From NCBI GenBank assembly GCA_049602715.1, contig JBMYRX010000004.1, positions 514 through 64,513 on the forward strand: a DNA stretch of 64,000 bases. The letters run 5' to 3'. This DNA is from Paracoccaceae bacterium (GTDB lineage: Bacteria > Pseudomonadota > Alphaproteobacteria > Rhodobacterales > Rhodobacteraceae). Position 1 is the first letter of the stretch, and every line of letters starts with the position of its first letter. The notes under the pieces are model-generated. The model did not search any database. It worked only from the letters and a program-made list of their open reading frames with translations, and was not told the origin of the DNA. Shown here piece after piece: positions 1 through 33,809 of the stretch. The position numbers and the translations under genes were made by a program.

Positions 1-370
1 CAGTAAGAATCTCAGAAACACTTACCCCGTCAATGGAAGAATTCTTTAAGGCCTCTACATCAGATACCTGCAAGGCTGCTGTGGCGAAGCTATCAACCAT
101 TGACTGAAAATCCTTGTTTTTTGCCACAAAGTCTGTTTCAGAATTTACTTCAATAACAACACCCGTATTATTACTAACCTTTACTGCAACAAGTCCTTCA
201 GCAGCAGTCCGACCAGATTTTTTGGCGGCCGTCGCAAGTCCTTTCGTTCGCAACCAATCTATAGAAGCCTCCATATCGCCATTATTTTCAATCAACGCCT
301 TTTTAGCGTCCATCATACCTGCCCCGCTAATATCACGAAGCTCTTTAACTAATGCTGCTGTTATCGACAT
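1..370 (-). CDS. tsf: Elongation factor Ts, N-terminal part (3' end runs off the left window edge)
   Basis: Reverse-complement translation from the ATG (cat at 368-370) reads [63 protein letters not shown]..., a canonical EF-Ts N-terminus. It lies directly downstream of rpsB, the usual rpsB-tsf order. Track ORF 114-416 (+) is its antisense shadow. Confidence 0.9.
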
Positions 371-463
371 TATAAAATCCTTAAATAAAAAATTAACTCA
401 AGATAAAGTCATTTAAATCCAAAACAATATTGACCTCTAATCTAATAAGAAATCTACAAAATA

Positions 464-1483: not shown

Positions 1484-1702
1484 AATATAATTTCCTTTCC
1501 GGTTTGTTCCTCGATGAAGCGCTAGAGCTGATACTCAACCGGTGGACTAAGAGGATTTATCCCTCTGAAGCCCGAACCTCATCTGTGAATTACTGGGTAT
1601 ATAAATAAAGTTTAATTGCTTAACAAGTCTTCTTTTTTGAATTTAAACTTATTTAAAATTACATTCTATGAACTTGCAACTTTTTCTTTTGCGGAGCAAT
1701 AA

Positions 1703-2584: not shown

Positions 2585-2585
2585 T

Positions 2586-3506: not shown

Positions 3507-3573
3507 ATCAGCTTCTTCTTGCACTTACTTAAGATAGGAACTAGAAAAATATTTAGATTAACTAGCCAGGTGC

Positions 3574-4245
3574 GTGCAAGTGAATAAAAAAAACAATGAA
3601 ATCAGAAAAAATCTAAGTCGTGGTATACTCGGAAATATTAGAGGAAACTTTCTTGCTGGTTTAATAGTAATTGCTCCCATCGGCTTTACTATTTGGATTA
3701 TAATGTCTTTCATTAACTGGATAGACGGCTGGGTTTTACCTTTGATCCCTTATAATTATCATTTTACTGATTATTTGGGACTAAACCTTAAAGGTATTGG
3801 AGTAATCTTTTTCTTATTTTTCACAGTCATCATTGGCTGGTTGGGTAAAGGAATTTTAGGTCGTACATTCCTTAGGTTTGGAGAGAATCTTGTTGATCGG
3901 ACTCCAATTGTAAGATCTGTTTATAATGGAATTAAACAGATTGCGGAGACTATTTTATCATCTCGAGATAGTTCATTTGAAAAAGCTTGCATGATTGAAT
4001 ATCCGAGAAAGGGGATTTGGGCGATTGGGTTTGTTTCCAGTGATACTAAAGATGAAATAGCAGATAAAAACCCTCTAAAAACAGACAAATTAATTTCCGT
4101 TTTTTTACCAACAACTCCAAATCCCACTTCTGGATATTTACTTTTTATTCCACAATCTGACATAACTTACCTTGATATGACAGTCGAAGATGCAGCAAAG
4201 CTAGTTATATCGGCAGGCCTCGTTTATCCTAAAAAGAAAAAATAA
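3574..4245 (+). CDS. DUF502-family membrane protein
   Basis: 223 aa with two N-terminal hydrophobic helices. The conserved motif TTPNPTSGYLLFIP is typical of DUF502 proteins. GTG start; the exact start is uncertain. Confidence 0.7.
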   Translation: MQVNKKNNEIRKNLSRGILGNIRGNFLAGLIVIAPIGFTIWIIMSFINWIDGWVLPLIPYNYHFTDYLGLNLKGIGVIFFLFFTVIIGWLGKGILGRTFLRFGENLVDRTPIVRSVYNGIKQIAETILSSRDSSFEKACMIEYPRKGIWAIGFVSSDTKDEIADKNPLKTDKLISVFLPTTPNPTSGYLLFIPQSDITYLDMTVEDAAKLVISAGLVYPKKKK

Positions 4246-4261
4246 ATTCCTTTCTGTAATC

Positions 4262-16612: not shown

Positions 16613-18019
16613 ATGGACGGTATTCCAATGACACGAACAAAGGCAATGAATAACTCATATGAATATTTTGATACTGGTGGTTTCGAAAAAGATTTGGCTG
16701 AATTAGTTAAGATACCAAGTCAAAGCCAAATTCCGAGTGAGGTAAGTTCATGTGAAAAATACCTCACTAAGGCTATGGTACCAAAATTTCATGAGATGGG
16801 ATTCCAAACTAAAATTTATGAAAATCCAATTAAGAATATAGGACCTGTTCTTTTAGCTACTAGGATAGAAGATCCTACGTTAACAACTATTTTAGGTTAT
16901 GGGCATGGTGATGTAATTCTTGGGCTTGATGACCAATGGACCAAAGGTAATGGTCCTTGGAATGCTACAAAAGACGGAAACATTCTCTATGGCCGTGGAA
17001 CAGCTGATAATAAAGGCCAGCATTGGATTAATATGAGTGCGTTATCAACGATTTTGAAAGTTAAAGGGACCCTAGGTTTTAATGCTAAGTTTATAATTGA
17101 AACCGGTGAGGAAAATGGCTCGAAAGGTTTAAGAGAAGTTATAGAATCGGATATAGAGTCCTTTTCTGCTGATGTTTTCATAGCTTCTGATGGCCCCCGC
17201 GTTAAGTACGACTGGCCAACTATTTCTTTAGGAGCAAGGGGAGCAATAAACTTTGATCTTACGTGTAACTTACGTAAAGGTGGCCATCATTCTGGAAATT
17301 GGGGAGGAGCGTTGGTTGATCCAGCAATCGTTATATCCCAGGCAATCTCGTGTATCACTAGTAAGACTGGAGAAATCAAGGTTTCTGGTTGGAGGCCAGA
17401 GAAACCATCCGTAAGAGTGCGTGAATTATTGAGTGATATAGAGTTAGACTCTGGACCAAATGGACCTACCCCAGATCCAAATTGGGGTGAACCTTCTTTT
17501 TCACCTGCAGAGAACGTTTTTGCATGGAATTCTTTTTCGGTGTTAGCAATGACATCAGGAAATCCTGATAATCCGGTTAATGCTATTGCGCCGACTGCTC
17601 GGGCACACTGTCAACTTAGGTATATCGCAGGAACCAATGTTGATAATGTTGTTCCATCTTTGCGAAAACATCTAGATGATAATAATTTCAATATAGTTAA
17701 AATAAAACAACCTCCTAAAGAAAATAGAGGGGGATTTATGGCGAGTAGAACTGAATTGGATAATCCATGGGTTCAGGTTGTTCAAAAGTCTATCGAGAAG
17801 AGCTCTGGTAGAAGTCCAGCGATTTTACCGCAAATGGGAGGTTCAATTTGTAATGACCTTTTTACGGACCTACTCGGCATTCCTGCCATTTGGATCCCAC
17901 ATTCCTATTCAGGGTGTTCGCAACACGCCCCAGATGAACATGTAATACTACCTGTATGTCGTGACGCGTTAGGGCTAATGACTGGGTTATACTGGGATTT
18001 AGGAGAAATAAAGAATTGA
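16613..18019 (+). CDS. M20-family dipeptidase-like protein (paralog 1)
   Basis: 468 aa with motifs GYGHGDV, YGRGTADNKGQ, ETGEENGS and CSQHAPDEH. Confidence 0.85.
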   Translation: MDGIPMTRTKAMNNSYEYFDTGGFEKDLAELVKIPSQSQIPSEVSSCEKYLTKAMVPKFHEMGFQTKIYENPIKNIGPVLLATRIEDPTLTTILGYGHGDVILGLDDQWTKGNGPWNATKDGNILYGRGTADNKGQHWINMSALSTILKVKGTLGFNAKFIIETGEENGSKGLREVIESDIESFSADVFIASDGPRVKYDWPTISLGARGAINFDLTCNLRKGGHHSGNWGGALVDPAIVISQAISCITSKTGEIKVSGWRPEKPSVRVRELLSDIELDSGPNGPTPDPNWGEPSFSPAENVFAWNSFSVLAMTSGNPDNPVNAIAPTARAHCQLRYIAGTNVDNVVPSLRKHLDDNNFNIVKIKQPPKENRGGFMASRTELDNPWVQVVQKSIEKSSGRSPAILPQMGGSICNDLFTDLLGIPAIWIPHSYSGCSQHAPDEHVILPVCRDALGLMTGLYWDLGEIKN

Positions 18020-19446
18020 ACAATCTTACCCCAGATTTACAACAAGTAATCATCCAGGCAGAAAGTGCTTTTGATGACCCCAGTGACTATTTTAAAAAAC
18101 TTTCAAAGCTTGTAACATTTAAAACTGAAAGCCAGCTTTCAACTTCGCTTCCTGTATTATTCGATTATTTGAATGAAGGTGTAGGCCCCTTATTTAAAGA
18201 GCTGGGATACGTTGTAAAAATTTTTGAAAATCCGATTGTTGGTGCTGGACCCGTAATGCTTGCAGAAAGAAATGAAGGTTCGCAATTTACGGTCGTTGGA
18301 TACGGCCATGGAGACGTAATACACGGACAAGAGGGGAAGTGGGATAATGATCGAAACCCATGGAAGTTAAGCTTTGAGGGTAATAAAGTCTACGGAAGAG
18401 GCACCGTTGACAATAAAGGCCAGCATCTTGCTCATTTAATTGCTCTTAAATCACTTATAAAAATAAATAATAAATTAGGTTTTAATCACCGTTTTATTAT
18501 TGAAATGGGAGAAGAAAATGGCTCCAGAGGTTTTCGACAATTAGTACAAGATAATTTAGGTTCTTTCTCTGGAGATGTTTTTTTTGCGTCGGATGGGCCT
18601 CGGACAGAGATAAAAAGGCCAAATATTACATTAGGAAATCGTGGAGTTCTAAACTTTGATCTTGTTTGCAACTCAAGGGAAGGAGGTCACCATTCGGGAA
18701 ATTGGGGAGGATTACTATCAAATCCTGCCATAGTTTTAGCGAATGCTATTGCTAGCATAATAGATTCTAAAGGTTCGCTAAAGGTAGACGGCCTTATGGT
18801 CAAGAGAATACCAGAAAATGTTAAAAAAGCATTAAAAGGGTTAAAAAGAGATGGAGGACCGAATTCGCCAGAAATTGATTTAAATTGGGGGCCGACGGAT
18901 CGATCAAGTATTGAAAAGGCGACTGCCAGTAATACATTTGAAGTTTTAAACTTTAGTGCAGGTGACCCTCTACATCCAGTCAACGCGGTACCACCTTTTG
19001 CGAAAGCTGCCTGTCAAATTAGATTTGTTATGGGAACAAGTTTAAAAGATATTATCCCCATTTTAAGGAAACATTTAGATAAATTTAATTTTGAAATGAT
19101 CGAAATTAATGATCCGCTACAATCGAATAGTATATCTTTTGAGGCAAGTAGAACTGATCCCAACAGTCCTTTTCCACAATGGGCTTCATCTATTATATCT
19201 GATGTTGCTAAAAATGACTGCGGTATTCTTCCTAATTCTGCTGGATCTAATATGACTGAGGTCATTCAATATGATTTAGATATCCCTATTGTGTGGCTTC
19301 CATTAAGCTACACGGGATGCTCTCAGCATGCTCCAAATGAACACATGTTAAAACCGCTCATGCGTGAAGGTATCGCTTTGGTTACCTCAATTTATTTTCA
19401 TTTAGGAGATAAGAGCTCTCAATCTTTGTTAAAGAAAAAATCTTAA
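18016..19446 (+). CDS. M20-family dipeptidase-like protein (paralog 2, tandem)
   Basis: 476 aa with the same motif set as the upstream gene (GYGHGDV, YGRGTVDNKGQ, EMGEENGS, CSQHAPNEH). Its TTG start overlaps the upstream stop (TTGA), and an AGGAG lies 10 nt upstream. Confidence 0.85.
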   Translation: MNNLTPDLQQVIIQAESAFDDPSDYFKKLSKLVTFKTESQLSTSLPVLFDYLNEGVGPLFKELGYVVKIFENPIVGAGPVMLAERNEGSQFTVVGYGHGDVIHGQEGKWDNDRNPWKLSFEGNKVYGRGTVDNKGQHLAHLIALKSLIKINNKLGFNHRFIIEMGEENGSRGFRQLVQDNLGSFSGDVFFASDGPRTEIKRPNITLGNRGVLNFDLVCNSREGGHHSGNWGGLLSNPAIVLANAIASIIDSKGSLKVDGLMVKRIPENVKKALKGLKRDGGPNSPEIDLNWGPTDRSSIEKATASNTFEVLNFSAGDPLHPVNAVPPFAKAACQIRFVMGTSLKDIIPILRKHLDKFNFEMIEINDPLQSNSISFEASRTDPNSPFPQWASSIISDVAKNDCGILPNSAGSNMTEVIQYDLDIPIVWLPLSYTGCSQHAPNEHMLKPLMREGIALVTSIYFHLGDKSSQSLLKKKS

Positions 19447-20627: not shown

Positions 20628-22193
20628 ATGGCAAAACCTAATTCATCCCTTTATCTTTTGAACGTATTATTTTGGAGATTCATCTTGGAAAAATATAGCG
20701 ACCCTAAATTAGTAGAACATGAAATACTTATCCAAGAAGATTTTAAAAGGCTAAACTATCCAGTTAAAAATTGGGTTCCAAAATTTATTGGACCTAATAA
20801 CAAACCACTTATTGATGTTCTCGTAATTGGTGGTGGTATGAATGGATTAGCTGCCGCTTTCGCCTTAAGGTGCCAGGGTGTTCAAAATATACGACAAGTT
20901 GATGAAAAAGAGTTTGGTCAAGCTGGGCCATGGTTAAACTTTGCCAGAATGCAATATCTTCGATCACCTAAACATTTGACAGGACCAGCCCTAAATATCC
21001 CAAATCTAACTTTTCGGGCCTGGTGGGAGGCAAAAAATTCAAAAGTTGGGTGGGAAAAATTAGGATTTATTAAACGTGAGGAATGGGCCGAGTATTTAAA
21101 ATGGTTTGAAAAAATTACAAATTCAAAAATTGAGTATAATACTAAAGTCACCAATATTGATTTTGTTAAACTTAAAGGTACTAAAAACCAAAATCTTCGA
21201 CCCTGTTACCGTGTCCACATAAGGAATACCAAAGGTGCGAATAGCTCATCAATAGACCCCGCTATCAACGACCCAATCTACGCCCGATATATAGTACTTG
21301 CAAATGGACGAGAAGGACTTGCACAGCCCAGAATCCCAAAGATCTTTAAAAATATACAATCAAAAAATATTTTCCATTCATCAGAAAAAATTAACTTTTC
21401 CTTTTTTAAAAATAAAAGAGTTTTTGTTGTTGGTGTAGGAGCATCTGCGTTAGATAATGCTGCATGTGCGGCCGAGGCTGGCGGTTCTGTCACGGTTATT
21501 GCTAGGGCTCCTAAAATGCCTTTATTAAATAAAATGAAGAACACCGTTTTCCCCGGTTTTGCTGAGGGCTTTCATGCACTTAAAGACCATGAGAAATTAG
21601 CTTGGATTACCCATATTCAAAATGAGAGGATAGCCCCACCAAAACACACCGTAGAAAGAGTCGAAAAACTGGGTATAAAATTAATTTTAGGGAGTGAAAT
21701 ATGTGACCTTAAAGAACTAGAGACAGAGTTTGAGTTAACTATCTCCAGTTTAAGAAATAAAAGAAAAACCTTTGCAGATTTTGTAATACTAGGTACGGGG
21801 TTCGTAATTGATCTGGAAAAAGTACCTGAGTTAGAAAGTTTTTCCAGTTATATTTTACTATGGAAAGACGTTTTGAAAAGTTATAAAAAGAGAGATGGCA
21901 GTATTATTGAGATGTTAGATTTCCCATACTTAGGAAAAAAGTTTGAATTCAAATCAACGATAGTTTCAAAACAAAATCATCTTAAAAACATTCGTTGTTT
22001 CAACCATGCAGCTCAACTATCTTTAGGAAATTTAGCAAACGATATACCTCATAGTAACGAAGGAGCACATCGTTTAGCAAAAGGTATCGCTGAAGATTTA
22101 TTCGAAGAGGATAAAACTATTCATTTTGAAAATTTAAAAAATTACACCGAATTAGAGATAACTGGCTCTGAATGGTCACAAATCCCAGACTAA
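20628..22193 (+). CDS. FAD/NAD(P)-binding flavoprotein monooxygenase-like oxidoreductase
   Basis: 521 aa with two dinucleotide-binding motifs (VLVIGGGMNGLAAA and VFVVGVGASALDNA). The true start may be an internal TTG preceded by GGAGA, near 20680. Confidence 0.7.
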   Translation: MAKPNSSLYLLNVLFWRFILEKYSDPKLVEHEILIQEDFKRLNYPVKNWVPKFIGPNNKPLIDVLVIGGGMNGLAAAFALRCQGVQNIRQVDEKEFGQAGPWLNFARMQYLRSPKHLTGPALNIPNLTFRAWWEAKNSKVGWEKLGFIKREEWAEYLKWFEKITNSKIEYNTKVTNIDFVKLKGTKNQNLRPCYRVHIRNTKGANSSSIDPAINDPIYARYIVLANGREGLAQPRIPKIFKNIQSKNIFHSSEKINFSFFKNKRVFVVGVGASALDNAACAAEAGGSVTVIARAPKMPLLNKMKNTVFPGFAEGFHALKDHEKLAWITHIQNERIAPPKHTVERVEKLGIKLILGSEICDLKELETEFELTISSLRNKRKTFADFVILGTGFVIDLEKVPELESFSSYILLWKDVLKSYKKRDGSIIEMLDFPYLGKKFEFKSTIVSKQNHLKNIRCFNHAAQLSLGNLANDIPHSNEGAHRLAKGIAEDLFEEDKTIHFENLKNYTELEITGSEWSQIPD

Positions 22194-24013
22194 CATTTAA
22201 AGTGCTCTATTCTATCCTCTGACGCATCGTAAAAGCGTTTCCGATGGAACATTTTCTTTGTTTTGGATGCATTTTCTCTACGTTTAATTGTTTCAGGTTC
22301 ATTTATTTCTCTATCGTTTCTTTGTAAAACAACACCATAGTCATTTAACGCACTTTCCTTGGATACCTTACCGTCCATTACATCGTTCAATACATTTAAT
22401 GGACAACGTTCATAGGGAGAACCCCAGCCCCCGCCGCCAGGTGTTATAATTCTTATTAAGTCACCCCGATTAAGTATATTACCATCACTTAATGGCTTTA
22501 ATTCTTTTGGGGAATCAGTATCGGGATTTATAAGAACTTGCCCTCCCGCTCCATTTAATCCCCCATTCACTCCAAACGCAGGATAGGTACAATTATCAAT
22601 TCGTATCCCAAGCACCATCTCATCAAGAAGCACTCTAATATCACGCGTTATACCACAACCACCTCGATATTTTCCAGGTCCACCAGAGTCTGAGTGAAAA
22701 GAAAAACTCTCAATCTCGATACCAAACTCCATTTCAGCAAATTCGACAGGATAATTTTCTTGAGCTACGTAATAAACAGCGTCTAGACCATCAGCGAAAT
22801 TACGGGCGCCATAACCCACAGAAAGACCTTCAATACACAACTCTTCCCCTTTATTAGGCGATTTTCCACGTAAGTAATATAGTACATAAACACTCGACGC
22901 AGCAGACGCATTCCCATTAGTAGCTTGTGCTAACGTACCAAATAATGACGAATTTACTCTAAACATTGAATGTGATCTTAACCCTAAGGGAGCTGGTGAA
23001 TTTGGGTTCAATAAGCTACCTGATCGTGTTTTAACGGTCTTTACAGCTCGTTGGAAGCCAGCATTCATAACTATATTTGGATTATCCTTTGTTAAAAATA
23101 GTCCTAACATAAACTTAGGAACACTACTGTGCATAACAAAATTTATAGGGCCTTTAGCCTGCTGCTCTGTTTCAGAGAAATCTAAGATTAATTCACCATT
23201 TTCAGATTGCATAATAAGATCTATGTAATAGCTATCATCGGTCACTGCGTCACTATCGATCCTATCTCTAAAGGACCATTCGCCGTCAGGAATTCTTTTC
23301 TCAATTTCAGATTTGACCGCGAATTCACTTTGACTAATAATTTCTTCGAAAGCATCCTCCAAACTACTTCCATTATATTTAGAAATTATAGCTTCAACTC
23401 TTCGTTTTCCAAGCTCACATGCCGCCATTATACTATTCAAATCACCTTCTAAAAGTTCTGGAAATCTAGAGTTTTGTGTGAAAATCCGAAAGACCTCTTC
23501 ATTTCTGACTCCATTTCGTACAATCCGAACTGGAGGTATCATTATGCCTTCTTGAAATACTGAAGTTGCAGATGGGCTTATCGACCCAGGTACGGAACCG
23601 CCAATATCCCACAAATGCCCCCAACACTCGACAAAAGCTGTAAGTCTATCAGAGGAGAAGACAGGCATGATAAACACCATATCTGGCAGATGGCTTACAG
23701 CTCCTTTCGTATAATAAGGATCGTTGTACCAATATATATCACCATCGAGCATCGTGTCGATCGGGTAAGTTTCCAAAACAGAATCTAATAGATTTCCCGC
23801 CAGAGTTAAACTTGTTGAAACAACCAACTCACCGTCTCGATTTAAAATAGCGGTAAAAAAATCCTTTTTTTCGCGAATAAAGGGTGACATTGAGGTACGA
23901 GTTATTAAGGCTTCCATTTCCCTTCTCGCGCCAGTTAATGCCCCTTTAATAAGCTCAAATTTAATCTGATCCTTCGCAGACCCGCGAAATGCTTTAATTA
24001 ATCTATTAGTCAT
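22190..24013 (-). CDS. Hydantoinase B/oxoprolinase-family protein (set 1, B subunit)
   Basis: 607 aa, HyuB-like throughout (GGPGKYRGGCG, TPGGGGWG). It overlaps the upstream hyuA-like gene by 8 nt. Confidence 0.9.
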   Translation of the reverse strand: MTNRLIKAFRGSAKDQIKFELIKGALTGARREMEALITRTSMSPFIREKKDFFTAILNRDGELVVSTSLTLAGNLLDSVLETYPIDTMLDGDIYWYNDPYYTKGAVSHLPDMVFIMPVFSSDRLTAFVECWGHLWDIGGSVPGSISPSATSVFQEGIMIPPVRIVRNGVRNEEVFRIFTQNSRFPELLEGDLNSIMAACELGKRRVEAIISKYNGSSLEDAFEEIISQSEFAVKSEIEKRIPDGEWSFRDRIDSDAVTDDSYYIDLIMQSENGELILDFSETEQQAKGPINFVMHSSVPKFMLGLFLTKDNPNIVMNAGFQRAVKTVKTRSGSLLNPNSPAPLGLRSHSMFRVNSSLFGTLAQATNGNASAASSVYVLYYLRGKSPNKGEELCIEGLSVGYGARNFADGLDAVYYVAQENYPVEFAEMEFGIEIESFSFHSDSGGPGKYRGGCGITRDIRVLLDEMVLGIRIDNCTYPAFGVNGGLNGAGGQVLINPDTDSPKELKPLSDGNILNRGDLIRIITPGGGGWGSPYERCPLNVLNDVMDGKVSKESALNDYGVVLQRNDREINEPETIKRRENASKTKKMFHRKRFYDASEDRIEHFKC

Positions 24014-26090
24014 TAAAGCACTCCTTAATCAGTAAATTCCCGAATTGATCTACAAACAACTTTTGGTTTCTAAGAAGGATGGTTGTTGAATCTAATTGGT
24101 CTATGATTGCGGGACCATAAATTACATGGCCATGACAAAGTTCATCTCTATCAAAGACCTTAACTTCTTCAAATATCTCTTGATCAATAACAGCTAACCT
24201 ACTTTTTTTGGAGGTTGGCTCTATTTCCTTTGTGACGTCAATTATTGGAGGAGCTATATGCTCTAACAATCCGAAAGCCTGAACTCTAAGGTTGACTAGT
24301 TCAACAGGAGCATCGGGATCCGAAAATGTATATAATTGTTTGTGAAGTTTATGAAAATTATTAATTGCTTTATTTGTTGTCTGCTTATCAACTTTTCCTA
24401 AAGGAAAAGAAACAGATAGTTCGGTTCCCTGCCCAGAATATCTAAAATCAGCTAAACGAACAATTCTTCTTTTTTTAGGTACAATATTATCAAGTGCTAA
24501 TCTTTTATTTGCTTGTTTATTTAGCTCATTGAAAGCGTCATCCATTACTTTAAAATTAAAATTGTCTGATCTTTGGAGTTTGGTCACCATAAAATCGTAC
24601 TTTAAGTCTGTGGCCAATAACCCATTAGCACATAAGATTCCGGGATATCTCGGAATAATAAGAGAGTTAACCGACAGTAACCTCATTAAATCTCCCCCAT
24701 GAACTGGGCCTGCTCCACCAAATGCAGCTAAAACAAAATCTGCAGGATCTAGACCTCTTTCAACGGACATTAATTTCAAGGCCCCATGCATTGTCTCATT
24801 AACAATTTTAATGATTCCAAGACTTGCTTCAACAATATTTGTTCCCAGCGGTTTAGCAACAAATTCCTCGATCGAATTTAAAGCTGCTTTAACATCCAAC
24901 TTAACAGATCCTCCAAGCAAATGAGGTGGTATTCGACCCAAGGCCAAGTTAGCATCGGTAACAGTCGGAAAAACTCCACCCTTATTATAAGATGCTGGTC
25001 CTGGATTGGCTCCTGCGCTCTCAGGGCCAACTAGTATCGCACCATTATCAGCAACAGATGCGATAGAGCCCCCTCCTGCGCCAATAGTATGAATATCAAT
25101 TATAGGTAATGCCAAAGGTTGTTTGTTTATTCGTGCTTCAGTACTTACTTGAAGTTTTCCATCTAAAACCAATGCTATGTCTGCACTAGTTCCACCCATG
25201 TCGATGGTAATGAGATTTCTGTGACCCGAAAGTTTACCGATAAAAGCTGCACCACTCATACCGGCAGCTGGTCCTGACAAAGCCATATAAGCACCAAAAC
25301 GCGATGCCTCTTCAGGTGGAAAAATTCCTCCGTTTGATTTCATAATATAAAGAGGTGATTTTATCTTAATATTTTTCAACTTGTCTTCTAATTGCCTTAC
25401 GTAATTACCTACAATAGGTTGAACAGCAGCGTTTATTACTGTCGCCATTGCACGTTCATACTCACGAAAAATTGGTAAAACTTCTGAAGATATAGATACC
25501 TCTACGTTTGGAAGTGCCTTTTTAATTTCTTGTTTAATTTTAATTTCATGAATTGGGTTCGCGTAAGAGTGGAGCAGAGAGATTGCAACGGCACTATAGC
25601 CTTCTTTACCAATAATTTTTATAATATTTTTGACAGAATCTAACTCTAAATCTTTTACAACTGAACCATCATATTTAACTCTTTCTGTTACTTCAAAAAT
25701 ATCTCGAGGAGAAACCGGCCTTTGTGGTTTAACCCACCCGTATAAGTTTTCTTCCCTAGGAATTTCTGCTCTACCGATCTCTAAAACATGCCTAAAGCCC
25801 TTAGTTGTGATTAACGCTGTTTTTGAAAGTTTTCCCTCTAAAATTGCATTTGTGACTACTGTGGATCCGTGTAGGACGACTTCAATTGATTTTTCTTGGG
25901 CATTGACAGAATCCATAACTAGCTTAACCGCATCGATAAATCCGTCTGAAGGGGCTAAAGGCGTCGACGGTGTTTTTGCTATTTCAAATAGAGTACCATC
26001 TCGATCGGCAATAACCACATCAGTAAAAGTTCCACCGATATCAATTGCAACTGAAAGCTCCGGGTCGTGTATGCCAGAATCCTTCTTCAC
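24006..26090 (-). CDS. Hydantoinase A/oxoprolinase-family protein (set 1, A subunit)
   Basis: 694 aa with the N-terminal AIDIGGTFTDVV motif and internal DMGGTSADI and GAGGGSIA ATPase motifs. Confidence 0.9.
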   Translation of the reverse strand: MKKDSGIHDPELSVAIDIGGTFTDVVIADRDGTLFEIAKTPSTPLAPSDGFIDAVKLVMDSVNAQEKSIEVVLHGSTVVTNAILEGKLSKTALITTKGFRHVLEIGRAEIPREENLYGWVKPQRPVSPRDIFEVTERVKYDGSVVKDLELDSVKNIIKIIGKEGYSAVAISLLHSYANPIHEIKIKQEIKKALPNVEVSISSEVLPIFREYERAMATVINAAVQPIVGNYVRQLEDKLKNIKIKSPLYIMKSNGGIFPPEEASRFGAYMALSGPAAGMSGAAFIGKLSGHRNLITIDMGGTSADIALVLDGKLQVSTEARINKQPLALPIIDIHTIGAGGGSIASVADNGAILVGPESAGANPGPASYNKGGVFPTVTDANLALGRIPPHLLGGSVKLDVKAALNSIEEFVAKPLGTNIVEASLGIIKIVNETMHGALKLMSVERGLDPADFVLAAFGGAGPVHGGDLMRLLSVNSLIIPRYPGILCANGLLATDLKYDFMVTKLQRSDNFNFKVMDDAFNELNKQANKRLALDNIVPKKRRIVRLADFRYSGQGTELSVSFPLGKVDKQTTNKAINNFHKLHKQLYTFSDPDAPVELVNLRVQAFGLLEHIAPPIIDVTKEIEPTSKKSRLAVIDQEIFEEVKVFDRDELCHGHVIYGPAIIDQLDSTTILLRNQKLFVDQFGNLLIKECFND

Positions 26091-26091
26091 A

Positions 26092-26868
26092 TTATGGTCC
26101 TCCGGTTACTGCAAGAGTTTGTCCTGTCACCCACTCAGCAAGATCAGAAGCAAAAAATAACGTTGCATTTGCAATATCCTCAGGCCTCCCTACTCGTCGC
26201 ATAGCTATCGAGTTAACTAAAGCAGCCTGACCTTGATCGCCATATGACTCCCATTGTTTTATATAATCAGGACTTGTTGGCATAAAGCCGGGAGCAACAG
26301 AGTTTACTGTGATTCCGAATTGACCTAATTCAGCTGATAACTGTTTAACGAAACCTATTTGAGCGGCCTTAGCCGTACCATAGCTTTGTACACCAGTTAA
26401 AGAAACACCAAGGCCCGCTCGGCTAGATATAACTATCAGTCTACCTTTTTTGTTACGTTTCATTCCAGGAACAACAGCTCGCGAAAGGTTAAAGAAACCA
26501 TCAACATTTACGGATTGTATAATTCGCCAATCCTCATCTGTGACGTCTTCAATTGGTGTTTTAAATCTAGAACGTACACCTCCTGCTGAGTGTACTGCTA
26601 TATCTACAGAACCTTTGTCAACTTGATCCTCTATGCTACTTACAACTGCTTCAACTTCTTTAGGGTTAGTAACGTCGCAATGAATGCATTTTATCCTCGA
26701 TGCTATTTTTGAATTCAAGCCAGATAATATCTCATCTAAAAGTTTTTTTTCAATATCCAAAGCCCAAACATCCGCACCGTTTTCTGCAAATGTTCGAACT
26801 ATTGTCCGACCAATTCCACGGACGCCACCAGTTACAAGGACAGAAGACCCCTTAAAGTTTATTTCCAT
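26092..26868 (-). CDS. Short-chain dehydrogenase/reductase
   Basis: 258 aa with TGGVRGIGR, a YGTAKAA catalytic motif and a C-terminal VTGQTLAVTGG. It abuts the downstream hyuA-like start. Confidence 0.9.
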   Translation of the reverse strand: MEINFKGSSVLVTGGVRGIGRTIVRTFAENGADVWALDIEKKLLDEILSGLNSKIASRIKCIHCDVTNPKEVEAVVSSIEDQVDKGSVDIAVHSAGGVRSRFKTPIEDVTDEDWRIIQSVNVDGFFNLSRAVVPGMKRNKKGRLIVISSRAGLGVSLTGVQSYGTAKAAQIGFVKQLSAELGQFGITVNSVAPGFMPTSPDYIKQWESYGDQGQAALVNSIAMRRVGRPEDIANATLFFASDLAEWVTGQTLAVTGGP

Positions 26869-26908: not shown

Positions 26909-28918
26909 TTACCCTTTTAATTCTGGGAACTCATCAAGGATCGTACTAAAGAGTGAGATAACAACCTGACCATTAAACAAATTGGTATCACTCCCATCCC
27001 ATTTATCTATCGCTGCAAAAATCCTGTGTTTTGTATAAAACCTCCAAGTCACTGGAAGTTTCACCAAGCAAGCCGTTAATGCGTCGTAATTGTCTTTGTT
27101 CCAAAGCTTTTCATATTCAACGCGTGCATTACACGGATTATAGAAGGAACTATCAACCACTTGGCTTTTTCTCTTTTCTTTTCTTAAAGTATTAGTTTCT
27201 TTTAAATTTAGTTTTAGCAAGTTATTCGTTTCTAAAGTTATTCTGACTCCATACTCTTTTTCAGCTTGCTCCAGAGACACCCAATTCCGTTGAGCATCGA
27301 GTAAGACACTTTCAGGATCCCGATCTAAAGCATTTCCCCATCCTCCAGCACCACCACAGGTAACATGAATTGTATCGCCTGGATCTAGAGATAAAATATC
27401 GGTATTTCGTAAATTAAACTCTTTTTCGGTATTTGGGTTTCGTATAAATTTTGATGGCCCGCCAGCTTTTCCCTCTGAGATTCCCCATCCTGCAAAACGG
27501 GTTCGGTCTCTATTCCTGGCTGTTACTTTTGTATTTGGAGATAAGGCTTCAAATACGAAATCGGTTCCAAGGCCACCTCTATGCTTTCCCGGACCTCCAG
27601 AATCCTTACTTAAGCCGTAGCTATGTACCCGGATCCCTGCTTCAACTTCATTTACTTCAACCGGAGAGTTTTTTAAAAATCCTGCATTAGCCCCAGATCC
27701 ATCCATTCCATCTCTTAATTTAGTGCCTCCAGATCCACCAGTCATTGGATTAATGGCGGCCATTATTCGTCTGCCAGTACGGGTGTCTGTTGTGTTCACA
27801 TTTAAGATTGGTCCTCCACTCGCCGGAGCGGCAGCCAAGCGATCAGGTAAAGCTTTTGCAAATGCTCCAAAGGTTAACCCGTGCATACGGGTACATGCTA
27901 AACTTCGCATTCCTACTGCGGCTGGGAAGACAGGGTTTACAATAGTACCTGAAGGTAAAATGCACGTACATGCACGAGTGACCCCCGAATTAAGATATAA
28001 ACGCGGATCTAGTGAGTAGAGGACATACAGAACCCCGACCATCATTAGTGCGTGTCTTGGATCACCCCCAGTAGGTATATTGATAGAACTTTCCAATTGA
28101 GGATCTGATCCTGTAAAATCAAGGACCAGCTCATCTCCTTTTACAATAAGTAACAACCTAATACGGCAGGGCCATCCTCCAACAGAATCCTCATCGATAT
28201 ATTCAGAAAAATCATACTCACCGTCAGGTATGTCCGAAATTATAGAACGAGCCTGTTGTTCTGCATAATCTAAAAGATCTCCAACACCATTTTTAAAGGT
28301 TTCCAATCCAAAACGTTCAATCATTTCGTGAACTTTTCGCTCACCAGTATTGCAGGCCGCAATTTGCGCCTTCAAATCACCCCAATTTTGTTCAGGAGAA
28401 CGCACATTTGCTAAAAAAACATCAAGCATTTTTTGATTTAATTTACCATCCTCCAAGAGTTTCATCGGAGGCATCCGTATTCCTTCTTGATGGACTTCCG
28501 TTAAACTCCGAGAGAGTGATGCTGGGACAGCTCCTCCCACATCTGTGTTGTGTATATGGCCAACAGAAAAGGCCACGATTTCGTCTTGATGAAAAATAGG
28601 TTTCCAAATATGCATATCCGGTGGATGCGTGCACACAAATCCAGAGTATGGATCATTTGTCATGCAAATATCACCAGGCTTGTAATCCTCTATTAAATTT
28701 ATTGCTCCAGAATAATTAAGGCCAACAAACCAGGTAGCGCCCAATTCTGTTGGTGTAGCAAAAGTTTCACCAGTTGGAGTTGTTAATCCCGTTGTAAAAT
28801 CCTCTGTTTCCTTGACAAAGGTCGAATGCGCCGTGCGATACAAGGTAAAGGCCATACTCTCTGCAGCAGCTCTCGTATGGTTCTTTAGAATTTCAAGGGT
28901 AATCTTATCAATCGCCAT
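26909..28918 (-). CDS. Hydantoinase B/oxoprolinase-family protein (set 2, B subunit, copy b)
   Basis: 669 aa. The first 556 aa are identical to the product of 28930-30951. The last 113 aa form a divergent tail. Confidence 0.9.
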   Translation of the reverse strand: MAIDKITLEILKNHTRAAAESMAFTLYRTAHSTFVKETEDFTTGLTTPTGETFATPTELGATWFVGLNYSGAINLIEDYKPGDICMTNDPYSGFVCTHPPDMHIWKPIFHQDEIVAFSVGHIHNTDVGGAVPASLSRSLTEVHQEGIRMPPMKLLEDGKLNQKMLDVFLANVRSPEQNWGDLKAQIAACNTGERKVHEMIERFGLETFKNGVGDLLDYAEQQARSIISDIPDGEYDFSEYIDEDSVGGWPCRIRLLLIVKGDELVLDFTGSDPQLESSINIPTGGDPRHALMMVGVLYVLYSLDPRLYLNSGVTRACTCILPSGTIVNPVFPAAVGMRSLACTRMHGLTFGAFAKALPDRLAAAPASGGPILNVNTTDTRTGRRIMAAINPMTGGSGGTKLRDGMDGSGANAGFLKNSPVEVNEVEAGIRVHSYGLSKDSGGPGKHRGGLGTDFVFEALSPNTKVTARNRDRTRFAGWGISEGKAGGPSKFIRNPNTEKEFNLRNTDILSLDPGDTIHVTCGGAGGWGNALDRDPESVLLDAQRNWVSLEQAEKEYGVRITLETNNLLKLNLKETNTLRKEKRKSQVVDSSFYNPCNARVEYEKLWNKDNYDALTACLVKLPVTWRFYTKHRIFAAIDKWDGSDTNLFNGQVVISLFSTILDEFPELKG

Positions 28919-28923
28919 TACTT
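27249..28923. repeat. Tandem direct repeat, unit 1 (1675 bp, apparently identical to 29282-30956)
   Basis: The two units sit at a fixed offset of 2033 bp. Spot-checked lines are identical. The translated sense ORFs and four antisense-frame ORF pairs in the track are also identical (for example 27451-27690 = 29484-29723 and 28408-28599 = 30441-30632). Confidence 0.9.
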
Positions 28924-28929
28924 ATCCCT

Positions 28930-30951
28930 TTATCCAGTTTTTTTACTTTTTAGCTCTGGGAATTCGTCAAGGATACCATTAAAGAGTGAGACAATCGCTT
29001 GACCATTGAAAAGATTGGCATCACTACTATCCCATTTATCTATCGCTGCAAAAATTCTGTGCTTTGCATAAAACCTCCAGGTCACAGGGAGTTTTTCCAA
29101 ACAATCTGTTAATTGGTCGTAGTTAGTCTTATTCCAACGCTTCTCATACTCAACGCGTGCATCACAGAGATTATAAAAAGAATTAGAAGTTATTCTTTTT
29201 ACATTCCTATCATCTCGTAATTTTTTGGTTCTTTTCTTATCGAGTTCTAATAATCCATCTTTATTTTTTGTAATAACAACCCCATACTCTTTTTCAGCTT
29301 GCTCCAGAGACACCCAATTCCGTTGAGCATCGAGTAAGACACTTTCAGGATCCCGATCTAAAGCATTTCCCCATCCTCCAGCACCACCACAGGTAACATG
29401 AATTGTATCGCCTGGATCTAGAGATAAAATATCGGTATTTCGTAAATTAAACTCTTTTTCGGTATTTGGGTTTCGTATAAATTTTGATGGCCCGCCAGCT
29501 TTTCCCTCTGAGATTCCCCATCCTGCAAAACGGGTTCGGTCTCTATTCCTGGCTGTTACTTTTGTATTTGGAGATAAGGCTTCAAATACGAAATCGGTTC
29601 CAAGGCCACCTCTATGCTTTCCCGGACCTCCAGAATCCTTACTTAAGCCGTAGCTATGTACCCGGATCCCTGCTTCAACTTCATTTACTTCAACCGGAGA
29701 GTTTTTTAAAAATCCTGCATTAGCCCCAGATCCATCCATTCCATCTCTTAATTTAGTGCCTCCAGATCCACCAGTCATTGGATTAATGGCGGCCATTATT
29801 CGTCTGCCAGTACGGGTGTCTGTTGTGTTCACATTTAAGATTGGTCCTCCACTCGCCGGAGCGGCAGCCAAGCGATCAGGTAAAGCTTTTGCAAATGCTC
29901 CAAAGGTTAACCCGTGCATACGGGTACATGCTAAACTTCGCATTCCTACTGCGGCTGGGAAGACAGGGTTTACAATAGTACCTGAAGGTAAAATGCACGT
30001 ACATGCACGAGTGACCCCCGAATTAAGATATAAACGCGGATCTAGTGAGTAGAGGACATACAGAACCCCGACCATCATTAGTGCGTGTCTTGGATCACCC
30101 CCAGTAGGTATATTGATAGAACTTTCCAATTGAGGATCTGATCCTGTAAAATCAAGGACCAGCTCATCTCCTTTTACAATAAGTAACAACCTAATACGGC
30201 AGGGCCATCCTCCAACAGAATCCTCATCGATATATTCAGAAAAATCATACTCACCGTCAGGTATGTCCGAAATTATAGAACGAGCCTGTTGTTCTGCATA
30301 ATCTAAAAGATCTCCAACACCATTTTTAAAGGTTTCCAATCCAAAACGTTCAATCATTTCGTGAACTTTTCGCTCACCAGTATTGCAGGCCGCAATTTGC
30401 GCCTTCAAATCACCCCAATTTTGTTCAGGAGAACGCACATTTGCTAAAAAAACATCAAGCATTTTTTGATTTAATTTACCATCCTCCAAGAGTTTCATCG
30501 GAGGCATCCGTATTCCTTCTTGATGGACTTCCGTTAAACTCCGAGAGAGTGATGCTGGGACAGCTCCTCCCACATCTGTGTTGTGTATATGGCCAACAGA
30601 AAAGGCCACGATTTCGTCTTGATGAAAAATAGGTTTCCAAATATGCATATCCGGTGGATGCGTGCACACAAATCCAGAGTATGGATCATTTGTCATGCAA
30701 ATATCACCAGGCTTGTAATCCTCTATTAAATTTATTGCTCCAGAATAATTAAGGCCAACAAACCAGGTAGCGCCCAATTCTGTTGGTGTAGCAAAAGTTT
30801 CACCAGTTGGAGTTGTTAATCCCGTTGTAAAATCCTCTGTTTCCTTGACAAAGGTCGAATGCGCCGTGCGATACAAGGTAAAGGCCATACTCTCTGCAGC
30901 AGCTCTCGTATGGTTCTTTAGAATTTCAAGGGTAATCTTATCAATCGCCAT
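28930..30951 (-). CDS. Hydantoinase B/oxoprolinase-family protein (set 2, B subunit, copy a)
   Basis: 673 aa. The N-terminal 556 aa are identical to copy b. Its tail of 117 aa is distinct. Confidence 0.9.
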   Translation of the reverse strand: MAIDKITLEILKNHTRAAAESMAFTLYRTAHSTFVKETEDFTTGLTTPTGETFATPTELGATWFVGLNYSGAINLIEDYKPGDICMTNDPYSGFVCTHPPDMHIWKPIFHQDEIVAFSVGHIHNTDVGGAVPASLSRSLTEVHQEGIRMPPMKLLEDGKLNQKMLDVFLANVRSPEQNWGDLKAQIAACNTGERKVHEMIERFGLETFKNGVGDLLDYAEQQARSIISDIPDGEYDFSEYIDEDSVGGWPCRIRLLLIVKGDELVLDFTGSDPQLESSINIPTGGDPRHALMMVGVLYVLYSLDPRLYLNSGVTRACTCILPSGTIVNPVFPAAVGMRSLACTRMHGLTFGAFAKALPDRLAAAPASGGPILNVNTTDTRTGRRIMAAINPMTGGSGGTKLRDGMDGSGANAGFLKNSPVEVNEVEAGIRVHSYGLSKDSGGPGKHRGGLGTDFVFEALSPNTKVTARNRDRTRFAGWGISEGKAGGPSKFIRNPNTEKEFNLRNTDILSLDPGDTIHVTCGGAGGWGNALDRDPESVLLDAQRNWVSLEQAEKEYGVVITKNKDGLLELDKKRTKKLRDDRNVKRITSNSFYNLCDARVEYEKRWNKTNYDQLTDCLEKLPVTWRFYAKHRIFAAIDKWDSSDANLFNGQAIVSLFNGILDEFPELKSKKTG

Positions 30952-30956
30952 TACTT
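29282..30956. repeat. Tandem direct repeat, unit 2
   Basis: See unit 1. Identity starts at ccatactc (29282) and ends 5 nt beyond the start codon (30956). Confidence 0.9.
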
Positions 30957-32998
30957 TAAGCCCTCTTACTAATAATCAAATTCTTAAATTTATCCACTTT
31001 TACATCAAACTCTGGCAGAACGATCGTGGTTGTATCATCTTGGCTGATAATTGCTGGACCAGCAAAATAGTGCCCTGCTTCTAAGTCAACCCTATCAAAC
31101 AACGAGGCGTCATATTCTTTTCCTTCTATATAAATTTTGTGAGTTTTTGAGGGTTCAAGATGTTTAATTTTCTCAGAATGTGTTAAAAATTGAGGTTTGG
31201 AGACCTCTCCTGAAATTACTAGGCGTAAATTTACTATCTGGATTTCTGCATCCAGATCTGAGTGTTCATAGATCTCATGATGGGCTTTATGAAAAGCCGT
31301 TGAAATACTGTTAATATCGATGGAATTTAACCAGTTTTTATCAAGACTAGTTTCAATTTCATAAGACTGACCTCGATAACGCATATCAGCAGACCATAAT
31401 AATTCGGATTTGCCATCAAATCCCTGTTCAGCTCGCAACCAATTTTCAGCCTCAGCCTCTAACTCATCTACTACTTTTTTAATGCCTAGAAGAGTATCTT
31501 CACTCACATCAATCATAATTGTTCGGATGAAATCGTTTCTAATATCAGCTATTAACCCTCCGTAAGCAGAAAGAACACCTGGTGTTGGGGGAATAATAAC
31601 GTCTCTTAACCCCATTTCTTTTGCTAAAAGGCAACCTATCATGGGCCCAGCACCGCCAAAAGGAAGTAGGCTAAAATTTCTAGGATCAGCCCCAAATCTC
31701 GACAATAGTTTTGTTGTTTCTAGGAACATTCCTGAAACAGCTACATCTATAATACTTTGCGCTGCTTGCTTTACATCCATCGACAGAGCGTCAGTTATTG
31801 GTTGGAGAGCTTTAACTGCAGCATCAATATTTAGCTGAACCTTTCCGTAACCTAGTTTTCCTTCACCTAGTAATCCTAAAACAGAAAAAGCATCGGTAAT
31901 TGTTGGCCGTGTTCCACCCTGATTGTAACAGGCCGGTCCTGGATTGGATCCTGCACTTTCTGGACCAACTTTAAGAACACCAAACGCATCAACCCACGCA
32001 ATTGAACCTCCCCCCTCACCGATTGACGTAACCGAAACTGTTGGGACGTAAATAGGAAAATCTCCAACCATTTCTCCGCTACTGTATGCAGGCTCTCCGT
32101 TGCTTATTACTGCAACATCAGCACTTGTCCCCCCAACATCAAAACTCAATATACTATCGGTTCCAATTTTTTTTGCAATTTCTGCGGCACCAATAACTCC
32201 TGTTGCCGTTCCCGAAAGCAGCATAGAAATCGGATCAGATTTTCCTAATTCAGCAGTCATTACACCTCCATTTGATTTTCCTATCATTGCAGTTGCAGTT
32301 ATCTGTGCTGATTTTAGAGCATCTTGGAAAGCTGTTAAATAATTAGCAACTCTTCTTTGAACATATCCCGCCACTGTGGTGGTTACCGTTCGTTCATACT
32401 CTCTAATAACTGGCCATACATCGGACGACAAAGTCACGGCCATTTCAGGAGCTTTTGAGTTGATAAGTTCTCTTATTCGACGTTCATGAGTGTTATTCGC
32501 ATAACTATGGAGTAAGGATACCACTATCGTATCACTCCCCATTTTTTTTGCTAGTTTTATTAAATCTTCAACGATAGATTCATTCAATTCAGTATCCACG
32601 CTGCCATCCTTTAAAGTTCGTTCTGGTACCCCAAATACGCGCTCTCTAGGAACTAATGGATCTGCCCTTCGTGAGAAAATGTTGTATGGATCAGGTACTT
32701 TAAGACGGGCTACTTCCAACACGTCTTCAAATCCCTGGGTAACGAATAAAGCCAATTTAGCGCCCGACCTTTGAATCACTGTATTGATGCCAACGGTTGT
32801 TCCGTGGCTAAACCATGAAACTTGTTCTGGTTCCAAAAGGCCTTTTTCTTTGAGTTCTAGAACCCCTAATGCAATCTCAGACCCAGGGTTATCAGGAGTG
32901 GATAAAACCTTATGGGTGCTTAAAATAGAATTATTCTCATTAAAGACACAAAAATCTGTAAATGTTCCACCTATGTCAACAGCGACCCTATAAGTCAT
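30956..32998 (-). CDS. Hydantoinase A/oxoprolinase-family protein (set 2, A subunit)
   Basis: 680 aa with the N-terminal VAVDIGGTFTDF motif and internal DVGGTSADV and GEGGGSIA motifs. Confidence 0.9.
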   Translation of the reverse strand: MTYRVAVDIGGTFTDFCVFNENNSILSTHKVLSTPDNPGSEIALGVLELKEKGLLEPEQVSWFSHGTTVGINTVIQRSGAKLALFVTQGFEDVLEVARLKVPDPYNIFSRRADPLVPRERVFGVPERTLKDGSVDTELNESIVEDLIKLAKKMGSDTIVVSLLHSYANNTHERRIRELINSKAPEMAVTLSSDVWPVIREYERTVTTTVAGYVQRRVANYLTAFQDALKSAQITATAMIGKSNGGVMTAELGKSDPISMLLSGTATGVIGAAEIAKKIGTDSILSFDVGGTSADVAVISNGEPAYSSGEMVGDFPIYVPTVSVTSIGEGGGSIAWVDAFGVLKVGPESAGSNPGPACYNQGGTRPTITDAFSVLGLLGEGKLGYGKVQLNIDAAVKALQPITDALSMDVKQAAQSIIDVAVSGMFLETTKLLSRFGADPRNFSLLPFGGAGPMIGCLLAKEMGLRDVIIPPTPGVLSAYGGLIADIRNDFIRTIMIDVSEDTLLGIKKVVDELEAEAENWLRAEQGFDGKSELLWSADMRYRGQSYEIETSLDKNWLNSIDINSISTAFHKAHHEIYEHSDLDAEIQIVNLRLVISGEVSKPQFLTHSEKIKHLEPSKTHKIYIEGKEYDASLFDRVDLEAGHYFAGPAIISQDDTTTIVLPEFDVKVDKFKNLIISKRA

Positions 32999-33002
32999 AA
33001 TC

Positions 33003-33800
33003 TTATCCTCTATTTAAATTAACGATGTTTGATCTCTGCTCCCTTGGGAAAAGTTTTTTTTCTATTAATGAAACAGAGTGTTTTACTTCTTTTATAATAA
33101 TTTCTTTTCTTTCAAAAAAACGAGGGGTCAGCATTACCATATTAAGTGCTGCCTTTGGAGATCCCGAGCTATCGAGGATTGGAAATGCAACCCCACTTGC
33201 CCCATCAAAGCGTTCATCTACATTAAGCGCATAACCTTGGTTGCGACATTTTTCTAGTTTATCCATTATTTGTTGCGTTGATGTTAAAGTCTTGGGTGTA
33301 AGGGCGATTTTATGTTCTTTCTCAATATACTTATGAACCACATCGTGAGGTAAGTGCGATAGAATAGCATGACCCAAGGATGTGCACCAACCCGGGATAC
33401 TAGGAGCTTTTCTGACAGAGTAACTCATCAACTGTTTTGACTGACGAAATTCTTCTATTTGAACATTTAAGTTTCGCATCGGAACTCCTAGCACTACGCT
33501 CTCTTCAAAGAGACCTAATAATCTATCCATTTCAGGTCCAGCGGTTCGCCTAATTGGGCCATTTATACCTCCGACCCAACCAGGTTGTCGCTTCAAATTA
33601 GTGTTTAATGTAAAGGCATTGTGTGAAATTTTTTCTAAGTAACCTTCGGCTATCAAAGTGTATACGAGAGTATGAGTTGAACTTTTAGGAATCGACAAAC
33701 TTTCACTAACCTCCCCGAGAGACATTGGTCCCCGCGCGGACTCGAAACATTCTAGGATCCGGAGTGTTCTGACGGCAGATTTAACATTATTATTAGCCAT
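33003..33800 (-). CDS. IclR-family transcriptional regulator
   Basis: It has an N-terminal wHTH (VRTLRILECFESARGPMSLGEVSESLSIPKSSTHTLVYTL) and a C-terminal effector domain. Its stop lies 4 nt before the hyuA-like start. The start is either ATG 33800 or TTG 33809. Confidence 0.85.
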   Translation of the reverse strand: MANNNVKSAVRTLRILECFESARGPMSLGEVSESLSIPKSSTHTLVYTLIAEGYLEKISHNAFTLNTNLKRQPGWVGGINGPIRRTAGPEMDRLLGLFEESVVLGVPMRNLNVQIEEFRQSKQLMSYSVRKAPSIPGWCTSLGHAILSHLPHDVVHKYIEKEHKIALTPKTLTSTQQIMDKLEKCRNQGYALNVDERFDGASGVAFPILDSSGSPKAALNMVMLTPRFFERKEIIIKEVKHSVSLIEKKLFPREQRSNIVNLNRG

Positions 33801-33809
33801 AACAATCAA

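Follow-up and report, generated by a model that had tools for sequence, protein, structure and literature searches.

Organization of the hyuB locus

The window, that is, the whole stretch of 64,000 nucleotides (nt) analysed here, originates from a Paracoccaceae bacterium (GenBank assembly GCA_049602715.1, contig JBMYRX010000004.1, positions 514 to 64,513) and carries on its minus strand two tandem hyuB genes, B1 (the upstream copy) and B2 (the downstream copy), next to one hyuA gene. By its sequence, hyuB is the gene of the metal-containing beta subunit of the ATP-dependent hydantoinase/oxoprolinase (lactamase/carboxylase) family. The two genes hold the two copies of a direct repeat of 1675 nt, positions 27249-28923 and 29282-30956, at an offset of 2033 bp. 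The first-pass annotation, made by reading the letters, had described this repeat as apparently perfect, and the exact comparison bore it out with 1675 matches of 1675; the maximal exact run ends at the same coordinates, and an independent repeat search of the window recovers the same pair. The scattered core mismatches, comparable to those of the tails, that had been named as an outcome speaking against a recent homogenization were not seen in the exact alignment, with 0 mismatches over 1675 nt. Each tract begins 5 nt ahead of the ATG and includes 1670 coding nt, thus reaching 2 nt further than codon 556, at which its end had been placed. The B1 and B2 proteins are identical up to residue 558, because the first two nucleotide differences are synonymous. 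Chance is excluded as the cause of this identity, since a comparison with the orthologous cores of the nearest other lineage shows 174 differing sites over this stretch (1668 nt), versus 0 for B1 and B2.

The remaining 3' parts of the genes, of 117 codons in B1 and 113 codons in B2, are homologous yet diverged, as had been noticed, and align without gaps at the protein level. The linker within them had been called almost unalignable, which is not the case: over residues 559-590 about 50% of the nucleotides are identical (48/96 aligned nt), while over the last ~78 codons the identity found by the repeat search is 80%. Nor does the tract stop exactly at the end of the HyuB core, as it had appeared to do; the Pfam Hydantoinase_B match ends at residue 529, about 28 residues before the tract, and the tract end is still within the part common to the solved homologues, which align to residues 563-580.

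The genes around the pair are collected with their coordinates in Table 1. The hyuA stop codon lies 4 nt upstream of the B1 start, and the cluster begins with the gene of an IclR-family regulator, which occupies the same position in four relatives (L001-L004). The statement that B1 and B2 have a single cognate A subunit holds for the adjacent gene; the operon also contains a distant hyuA'/hyuB' pair at 22190-26090, in which hyuB' is 32% identical to B1 and is without the helical C-terminal module. The start/stop overlap of hyuA' and hyuB' is 8 nt, and hyuB' has in common with B1 and B2 a hairpin-helix-'FY' C-terminus. The conservation of this cluster, in which two enzyme sets are combined with a short-chain dehydrogenase (SDR), a flavin monooxygenase and an old-yellow-enzyme-type reductase, extends from Rhodobacteraceae to SAR116 and Porticoccaceae.

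Table 1. Features of the hyu gene string, in positions of the 64,000-nt window
Feature	Position	Strand	Remarks
Flavin monooxygenase gene	20628-22193		Pfam; converges on the hyu gene string
hyuB'	22190-24013	-	607 aa; Pfam; second, distant pair in the same gene string
hyuA'	24006-26090	-	694 aa; Pfam; second, distant pair in the same gene string
SDR	26092-26868	-	258 aa; Pfam adh_short_C2; immediately downstream of B2
hyuB copy B2 (downstream copy)	26909-28918	-	669 aa; starts 11 nt past the B1 stop
B2 C-terminal helical module (predicted)	26915-27148	-	by sequence comparison
B2-type divergence island, residues 559-590	27149-27244	-	by sequence comparison
Homogenized tract, copy 2	27249-28923	-	exact identity with 29282-30956
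hyuB copy B1 (upstream copy)	28930-30951	-	673 aa; Pfam Hydantoinase_B, E 7e-144
B1 C-terminal helical module (predicted), residues ~591-668	28948-29181	-	nt sequence 80% identical to that of the B2 module
B1-type divergence island, residues 559-590	29182-29277	-	predicted beta-hairpin, helix, loop
Homogenized tract, copy 1	29282-30956	-	exact identity with 27249-28923
hyuA, ATP-binding alpha-type subunit	30956-32998	-	680 aa; Pfam Hydant_A_N, Hydantoinase_A, Hydant_A_C
IclR-family regulator	33003-33809	-	268 aa; head of the cluster; Pfam HTH_IclR and IclR_C

The Tandem Arrangement in Independent Assemblies

The relatives considered were the nearest matches of a protein search, traced to their contigs. 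Two of them, L001 and L002, are metagenome scaffolds from different samples, and the gene order IclR-hyuA-hyuB-hyuB-SDR-hyuA'-hyuB' is found on both. The JGI contig L086 shares 97.5% identity with the window and so comes from the same lineage. It is collinear with the window from hyuA through all of B1, the stop and the spacer, and then includes 81 nt from the beginning of a second core, which match the beginning of its own B1 letter for letter; there the contig breaks off, as contigs are expected to do at a repeat. The junction of a B1 tail with a second core is also carried by the metagenome scaffold L142.

An assembly artefact, i.e., a single hyuB duplicated by the assembler or two strain variants joined in tandem, was the alternative named in the first-pass annotation, and some of the observations are those that it would produce. 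Perfect identity over 1675 bp is expected from a loop traversed twice or from an erroneous duplication, the closest metagenome-assembled genome (MAG) from long reads, L007, has one copy, and exact-sequence look-ups placed the B1 and B2 proteins of the window on no other record. However, the junction between the copies, consisting of the B1 tail, the stop, a spacer of 11-13 nt and the second ATG with its core, is present in four independent assemblies (L001, L002, L086 and L142), and the linkers of the B1 and B2 types are each conserved across lineages that are ~10% apart. Since two strain alleles of one gene would make a bubble that closes again at the SDR gene, without any junction from a tail to a start, the tandem hyuB arrangement is, as judged from these sequences, real in the clade, and an artefact is very unlikely.

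The spacer between B1 and B2 reads AGGGATAAGTA in the window (28919-28929), AGGGATAAGTGG in L086 (3661-3672) and AGGAGGAAAGCCG, with a strong Shine-Dalgarno motif, in L001 and L002 (L001 12023-12035). Because it differs between lineages, the identity of the 5 nt upstream of the start codons is specific to the window, and the way in which the translation of B2 starts may vary among them. At its other end, B2 of the window finishes with ...ELKG and a stop codon (26909-26925), six codons before B2 of L001 and L002 (...ELKSSVPTKI and stop; L001 14040-14063); because the DNA further downstream is still recognizably homologous, the stop must have changed recently in one of the lineages.

Homogenized Cores and a Diverged Island

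In a codon alignment of the six genes (B1 and B2 of the window, L001 and L002) with outgroups, the core and the tail were found to follow different groupings. Within a genome, the cores (codons 1-556) of B1 and B2 are identical at the DNA level by 100% in the window, 99.8% in L001 and 99.9% in L002, while the cores of the window are only 89.6-89.9% identical to those of L001 and L002, with about 97% between L001 and L002 and ~87.5% between the window and L001/L002 over the whole region. In the tail, B1 of the window is 85-86% identical to B1 of L001/L002 and B2 is 82-83% identical to B2, versus 71-75% in the cross-type B1-B2 comparisons involving the window.

The same contrast is seen site by site. 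There are 150 sites that group the genes by genome, of which 145 fall at nt 1-1686 of the alignment and five in the C-terminal module (nt 1927-1939). Grouping by gene position is supported by 31 sites, which are all located at nt 1675-1793 and 2010-2023, with none in nt 1-1674; 27 of them belong to residues 559-590, to which nt 1675-1793 of the alignment correspond in the window proteins once the gap columns are removed, and the remainder to the extreme C-terminus. All three genomes have their boundary at coding nt 1671-1675, the same within a few nt (...TATGGG and then GTT GTT, versus ...GT(G/C) AGA). At 27 nt upstream of it, L001 and L002 also have in common a single additional synonymous difference that is specific to B2.

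The number of synonymous substitutions per site (dS) in the core is 0 (window), 0.008 (L001) and 0.005 (L002) between the paralogues, and 0.51 between the orthologues. Paralogues within a genome are thus closer to each other than orthologues between genomes, as is required for concerted evolution, together with homogeneity at synonymous sites, a duplication older than the split of the lineages and discrete tract boundaries, all of which were found here. Purifying selection alone might be thought to keep the cores identical, the core being highly constrained, with a ratio of nonsynonymous to synonymous substitutions (dN/dS) of 0.05 between orthologues; but the synonymous sites are identical as well (dS of 0-0.008 within a genome versus 0.51 between orthologues), and the probability of this explanation is practically negligible. 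GC-biased conversion was rejected as another candidate, since the GC content at third codon positions shows no signal of it (0.311 in the core, 0.282 in hyuA, 0.325-0.327 in the tails).

As a local control, the adjacent pair of M20 peptidases in the window is only 44% identical at the protein level, so that homogenization does not extend to the region in general. These peptidase genes (16613-18019 and 18016-19446, both on the plus strand, with a 4-nt overlap) have in common only short repeats of 73-76% DNA identity and are an ordinary diverged tandem duplicate.

Age of the Duplication and Extent of Homogenization

Copy number and tail variants were compared in the relatives, as had been proposed, with the result that the two-copy order occurs in L001 and L002 and that both linker types are conserved across lineages. 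A single hyuB is present in L003-L006, L008-L010, L144 and about 70 further loci, these distant loci (in Rhodobacteraceae, SAR116, Porticoccaceae and others) having one long hyuB directly followed by the SDR gene. In the C-terminal module, dS between the paralogues is 0.82 in the window and 0.25-0.32 in L001/L002, the orthologues differ by 0.49-0.57, and the comparison with the single-copy L008-L010 is saturated. Because the value of 0.82 for the window lies between those of the orthologues and of the outgroup, the duplication took place after the split of L008-L010 and before that of the window from L001/L002. Independent duplications in each lineage were rejected, since the B1-type and B2-type linkers and C-termini are common to the window, L001 and L002.

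A recent re-duplication or horizontal replacement is a related possibility, whereby the core was copied or imported in each lineage and joined to divergent tails from elsewhere. Recombination between lineages may occur, as L142 displays blocks of different lineages side by side. This explanation, however, needs independent events in at least two lineages, each giving an identical boundary and order of tails, and both linker types have residues in common with the single-copy outgroup, neither of them being closer to it (dN of 0.70 and 0.60), which argues that the linker types diverged in situ and were not imported. It is therefore very unlikely.

The proposal of the first-pass annotation, that a very recent conversion had been confined to the core beside an older divergence of the tails, stands in so far as the cores group by genome and the linkers by position. 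It is to be amended in that the conversion appears recurrent and lineage-wide, not a single event, and in that its restriction to the core is incomplete: the C-terminal helical module is partly converted in L001 and L002, and the persistent escape concerns residues 559-590 and the last few codons. The low dS of 0.25-0.32 and the five genome-grouping sites in the module of L001/L002 indicate its conversion there as a separate block, so that this module seems, from the sequence comparison, to be converted only intermittently, recently in L001/L002 and not recently in the window.

Proposed Mechanism and Its Weighing

Taken together, the pattern is best read as a genuine, lineage-specific hyuB tandem duplication that has been homogenized by recurrent gene conversion with a fixed boundary, i.e., as concerted evolution in which the cores of an old duplicate are repeatedly overwritten while a short segment escapes throughout. 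We assign to this reading, which was derived from sequence comparison, a probability of about 0.85. Its course in an uncultured AT-rich marine Paracoccaceae/Rhodobacteraceae lineage would be as follows. After hyuB had been duplicated, before the window lineage separated from that of L001/L002, homologous recombination between the direct repeats would be non-reciprocal, so that one core repeatedly overwrites the other and even synonymous differences are wiped out over codons 1-557. Every conversion tract would end at the same place, where the nucleotide identity drops to ~50% over 32 codons (residues 559-590), while the helical module of ~78 codons would act as a second, weaker homology block that is converted now and then.

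The consensus of homologues designates residues 559-590 as the least conserved and fastest-evolving part of the protein family-wide. Because the boundary coincides with this island of ~50% identity, a neutral sequence of events may suffice for it, in which the fast drift of the island creates a homology barrier and the barrier a stable boundary, possibly reinforced by selection for two versions. A RecA-type mechanism is suggested by analogy. The conversion of tufA and tufB in Salmonella is strongly reduced in recA strains and aborts at homology ends (PMC5485169), and its tracts spread processively, with mismatch repair shortening them and limiting conversion (PMC5485169). The rate reported for tuf is one event per 10^5-10^6 generations (PMC5485169); if it applied here, it would predict, with ordinary mutation rates by our own estimate, about 0-3 differences per 1.7 kb, where 0, 2 and 3 are observed.

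Repeated unequal crossing-over, by which the array shrinks to one chimeric copy and then re-expands, is a rival explanation. Direct repeats in tandem can undergo unequal sister-chromatid exchange, and the single copy of L007 with its B2-type linker is the expected deletion product. On the other hand, a contraction loses the B1-type linker, which no re-duplication could recover, whereas both types persist in the window, L001 and L002; moreover, the L007 tail switches from B2 to B1 and back to B2, which is not obtainable from a single crossover. Cycles of this kind are unlikely as the main cause of the pattern.

Several points weigh against recurrent gene conversion as stated above, the first being that it and cycles of unequal crossing-over cannot be separated from sequence alone. 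The second concerns the assembly of the window. A short-read assembler walking a loop twice would print identical copies even with a few single-nucleotide polymorphisms, the copy number in the source organism resting on the assembly, so that the identity of exactly 100%, rather than ~99.8%, could be flattered by the way in which the loop was resolved. The raised dN/dS of the island (0.41-0.88 between paralogues versus 0.16-0.31 between orthologues) comes from ~36 codons only and is not proof of selection, which leaves this comparison indecisive.

Two of the relatives count on the same side. L007 (Paracoccaceae LRMED-273, JBJLGD010000010.1, 6001-8028) has one hyuB, with a core 98.6% identical to that of L001 and a chimeric tail composed of a B2-type linker, a helical module like that of L001 B1 and a B2-type end. 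The label 'LRMED' belongs to MAGs from long-read Mediterranean metagenomes, LRMED-273 itself not being named in the main text of their description (PMC12379486). The single copy may be a real deletion allele from recombination between the repeats or an assembly collapse, and because of it the two-copy state is either not fixed or collapsed in that assembly. The scaffold L142 (ENA ERZ23486807, BPAM22-1 scaffold_10593, 1-5242) is the only assembly whose two cores differ, being just 88.2% identical, with 197 differences evenly spread, and it could represent a lineage without recent conversion. Its sequence is a patchwork of window-like and L001-like blocks, with ~nt 300-900 (hyuA) 98-99% identical to the window and flanks 99% identical to L001; the second core is ~88% identical to everything else, with L114 as the closest (91.8%), and the scaffold stops exactly at the core/tail boundary. 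It is probably a chimeric assembly or an inter-lineage recombinant rather than a carrier of an unconverted paralogue and, with lineages mixed along its whole length, it was judged too ambiguous to count in favour of an unconverted B2 core.

One more contig, L143 (ENA ERZ2439084 NODE_16998), was tried as a repeat-collapsed contig and discarded, because it ends in Nextera adapter read-through. The read-through at ~1994-2065 (CTGTCTCTTATACACATCTCCGAGCCCACGAGAC...) has been translated into a 567-aa 'HyuB' protein, P0006, in a public collection.

Protein Family, Structure and Assembly

Both B1 and B2 match the Pfam family PF02538 (Hydantoinase_B) over profile positions 1-518/519 (E 7e-144). The metal tetrad Asp-His-Asp-His, D40/H98/D101/H123, aligns to D41/H99/D102/H124 of CapB (PMC8453981), and all four residues are invariant in 45 homologues. 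The ATP-binding partner of the HyuA type, which adjoins B1, has all three HyuA Pfam domains. The nearest solved relatives are the fused N-methylhydantoinase (7HK5/9H03) and the beta subunit of caprolactamase (6YRA_B), the acetophenone and acetone carboxylases being more distant ones.

The full-length structure model is of moderate quality, with a predicted local distance difference test (pLDDT) score of 69, while the model of residues 541-673 is confident (pLDDT 88) and consists of a helix (549-556), a beta-hairpin (560-570), a second helix (572-585), a loop and a bundle of about five helices (597-663). The divergence island would accordingly correspond, in the model, to the hairpin-helix that joins the core to the helical module. 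Since the solved homologues end near residue 580, without a helical bundle, the bundle is an addition typical of the marine subfamily of ~665-680 residues. Nothing but noise came from a Pfam search with the tail taken alone, at E up to 10, or from comparing the C-terminal module with the PDB sequences. A Foldseek search with the tail model gave no significant match, the top hits being 5svb and 5m45 (acetone carboxylase alpha; E 0.12-0.44, root-mean-square deviation ~11 A), a weak resemblance that is no more than a hint. A literature search on this marine hydantoinase subfamily and its cluster yielded nothing relevant.

The cell is predicted to make two beta subunits that have identical catalytic and alpha-binding cores and differ in their C-terminal arms, beside one hyuA. 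Caprolactamase forms a tetramer, (alpha-beta)2, with a beta-beta dimer at its centre (PMC8453981), and in the carboxylases a gamma subunit is bound, or the dimer interface extended, by the C-terminal arms of the beta type (PMC8453981). By analogy, B1 and B2 may assemble with the single adjacent HyuA, either as two homotypic complexes or with a mixed beta1-beta2 core, and they may differ from each other in function or assembly. No match to a gamma-subunit family was found among the larger open reading frames scanned near the cluster, the small ones not having been scanned. A more far-reaching idea is that the two-isoform state is maintained by selection, for a heterodimeric beta1-beta2 core (alpha-beta1-beta2-alpha) or for two complexes with different partners or regulation, with conversion keeping the cores matched to the single HyuA and residues 559-590 spared as an isoform-specific contact; this idea is tentative and rather doubtful at present.

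Besides the genes of Table 1, the neighbourhood contains those for the old-yellow-enzyme-type reductase, the M20 peptidases, a gamma-glutamyltranspeptidase and a peptide-type ABC transporter, which suggest the catabolism of a small cyclic or amide compound, and no more than that.

Relation to Known Systems and Significance

Concerted evolution by gene conversion in prokaryotes has been catalogued by Wang & Chen 2018 for tuf, psbA/psbD, amoCAB, etfAB and others, most of the catalogued cases involving subunits of stable complexes (PMC6053082); the hydantoinase genes are absent from the 26 genes listed there (PMC6053082). The hyuB pair resembles tufA/tufB of Salmonella and E. coli, and the other catalogued cases, in that the paralogues within a genome are closer than the orthologues, including synonymous sites, and in the recurrent homogenization, the affiliation with subunits of stable complexes and the tracts ending where homology ends. 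Unlike tufA and tufB, which are distant loci, the hyuB copies stand head-to-tail, 11 nt apart; they are homogenized over a part of the gene, a short internal island being kept as two orthologous types, and over a short time span (dS ~0.5-0.8), not hundreds of millions of years.

As enzymes, the closest parallels are CapAB (6YRA) and the N-methylhydantoinase (7HK5/9H03), to which B1 and B2 are similar in the Hydantoinase_B fold (E 1e-60 to 1e-68 by sequence, 4e-29 to 9e-34 by Foldseek), the conserved metal tetrad and the adjacent partner of the HyuA type. In those enzymes, however, beta is encoded by a single gene or fused with alpha into one chain, and the sequence stops near query residue 580, while the window proteins add a helical module of ~80 residues and exist as two isoforms. 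The acetophenone carboxylase (Apc), (alpha alpha' beta gamma)2, and the acetone carboxylase (5L9W, 5M45, 5SVB) belong to the same superfamily as hyuB. Apc shows that paralogous alpha and alpha' subunits can coexist in one complex, but it is the HyuA-type subunit that is duplicated there, with copies diverged throughout, unlike the hyuB pair. The process itself is thus known and the hyuB pair is a new example of it, particular in its immediate tandem position, the perfect tract, the boundary conserved across lineages and the 32-residue island that persists in two orthologous types.

The pair therefore provides an unusually clean natural case of domain-limited concerted evolution in bacteria, with single-copy outgroups, in uncultured marine genomes. 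Loci of this kind break or collapse short-read assemblies, as in L086 and L142, both of which break there; because they are homogenized and disrupt assembly, phylogenies and orthology calls of these genes that are based on the core mislead. If the two beta isoforms are functionally distinct, they would hint at an undescribed subunit arrangement in a widespread marine subfamily of ATP-dependent lactamase/carboxylase-like enzymes. Furthermore, if the beta1-beta2 core were to prove true, it would add a quaternary arrangement new to the hydantoinase/oxoprolinase/carboxylase family, and gene conversion would serve as a device of co-adaptation within one operon.

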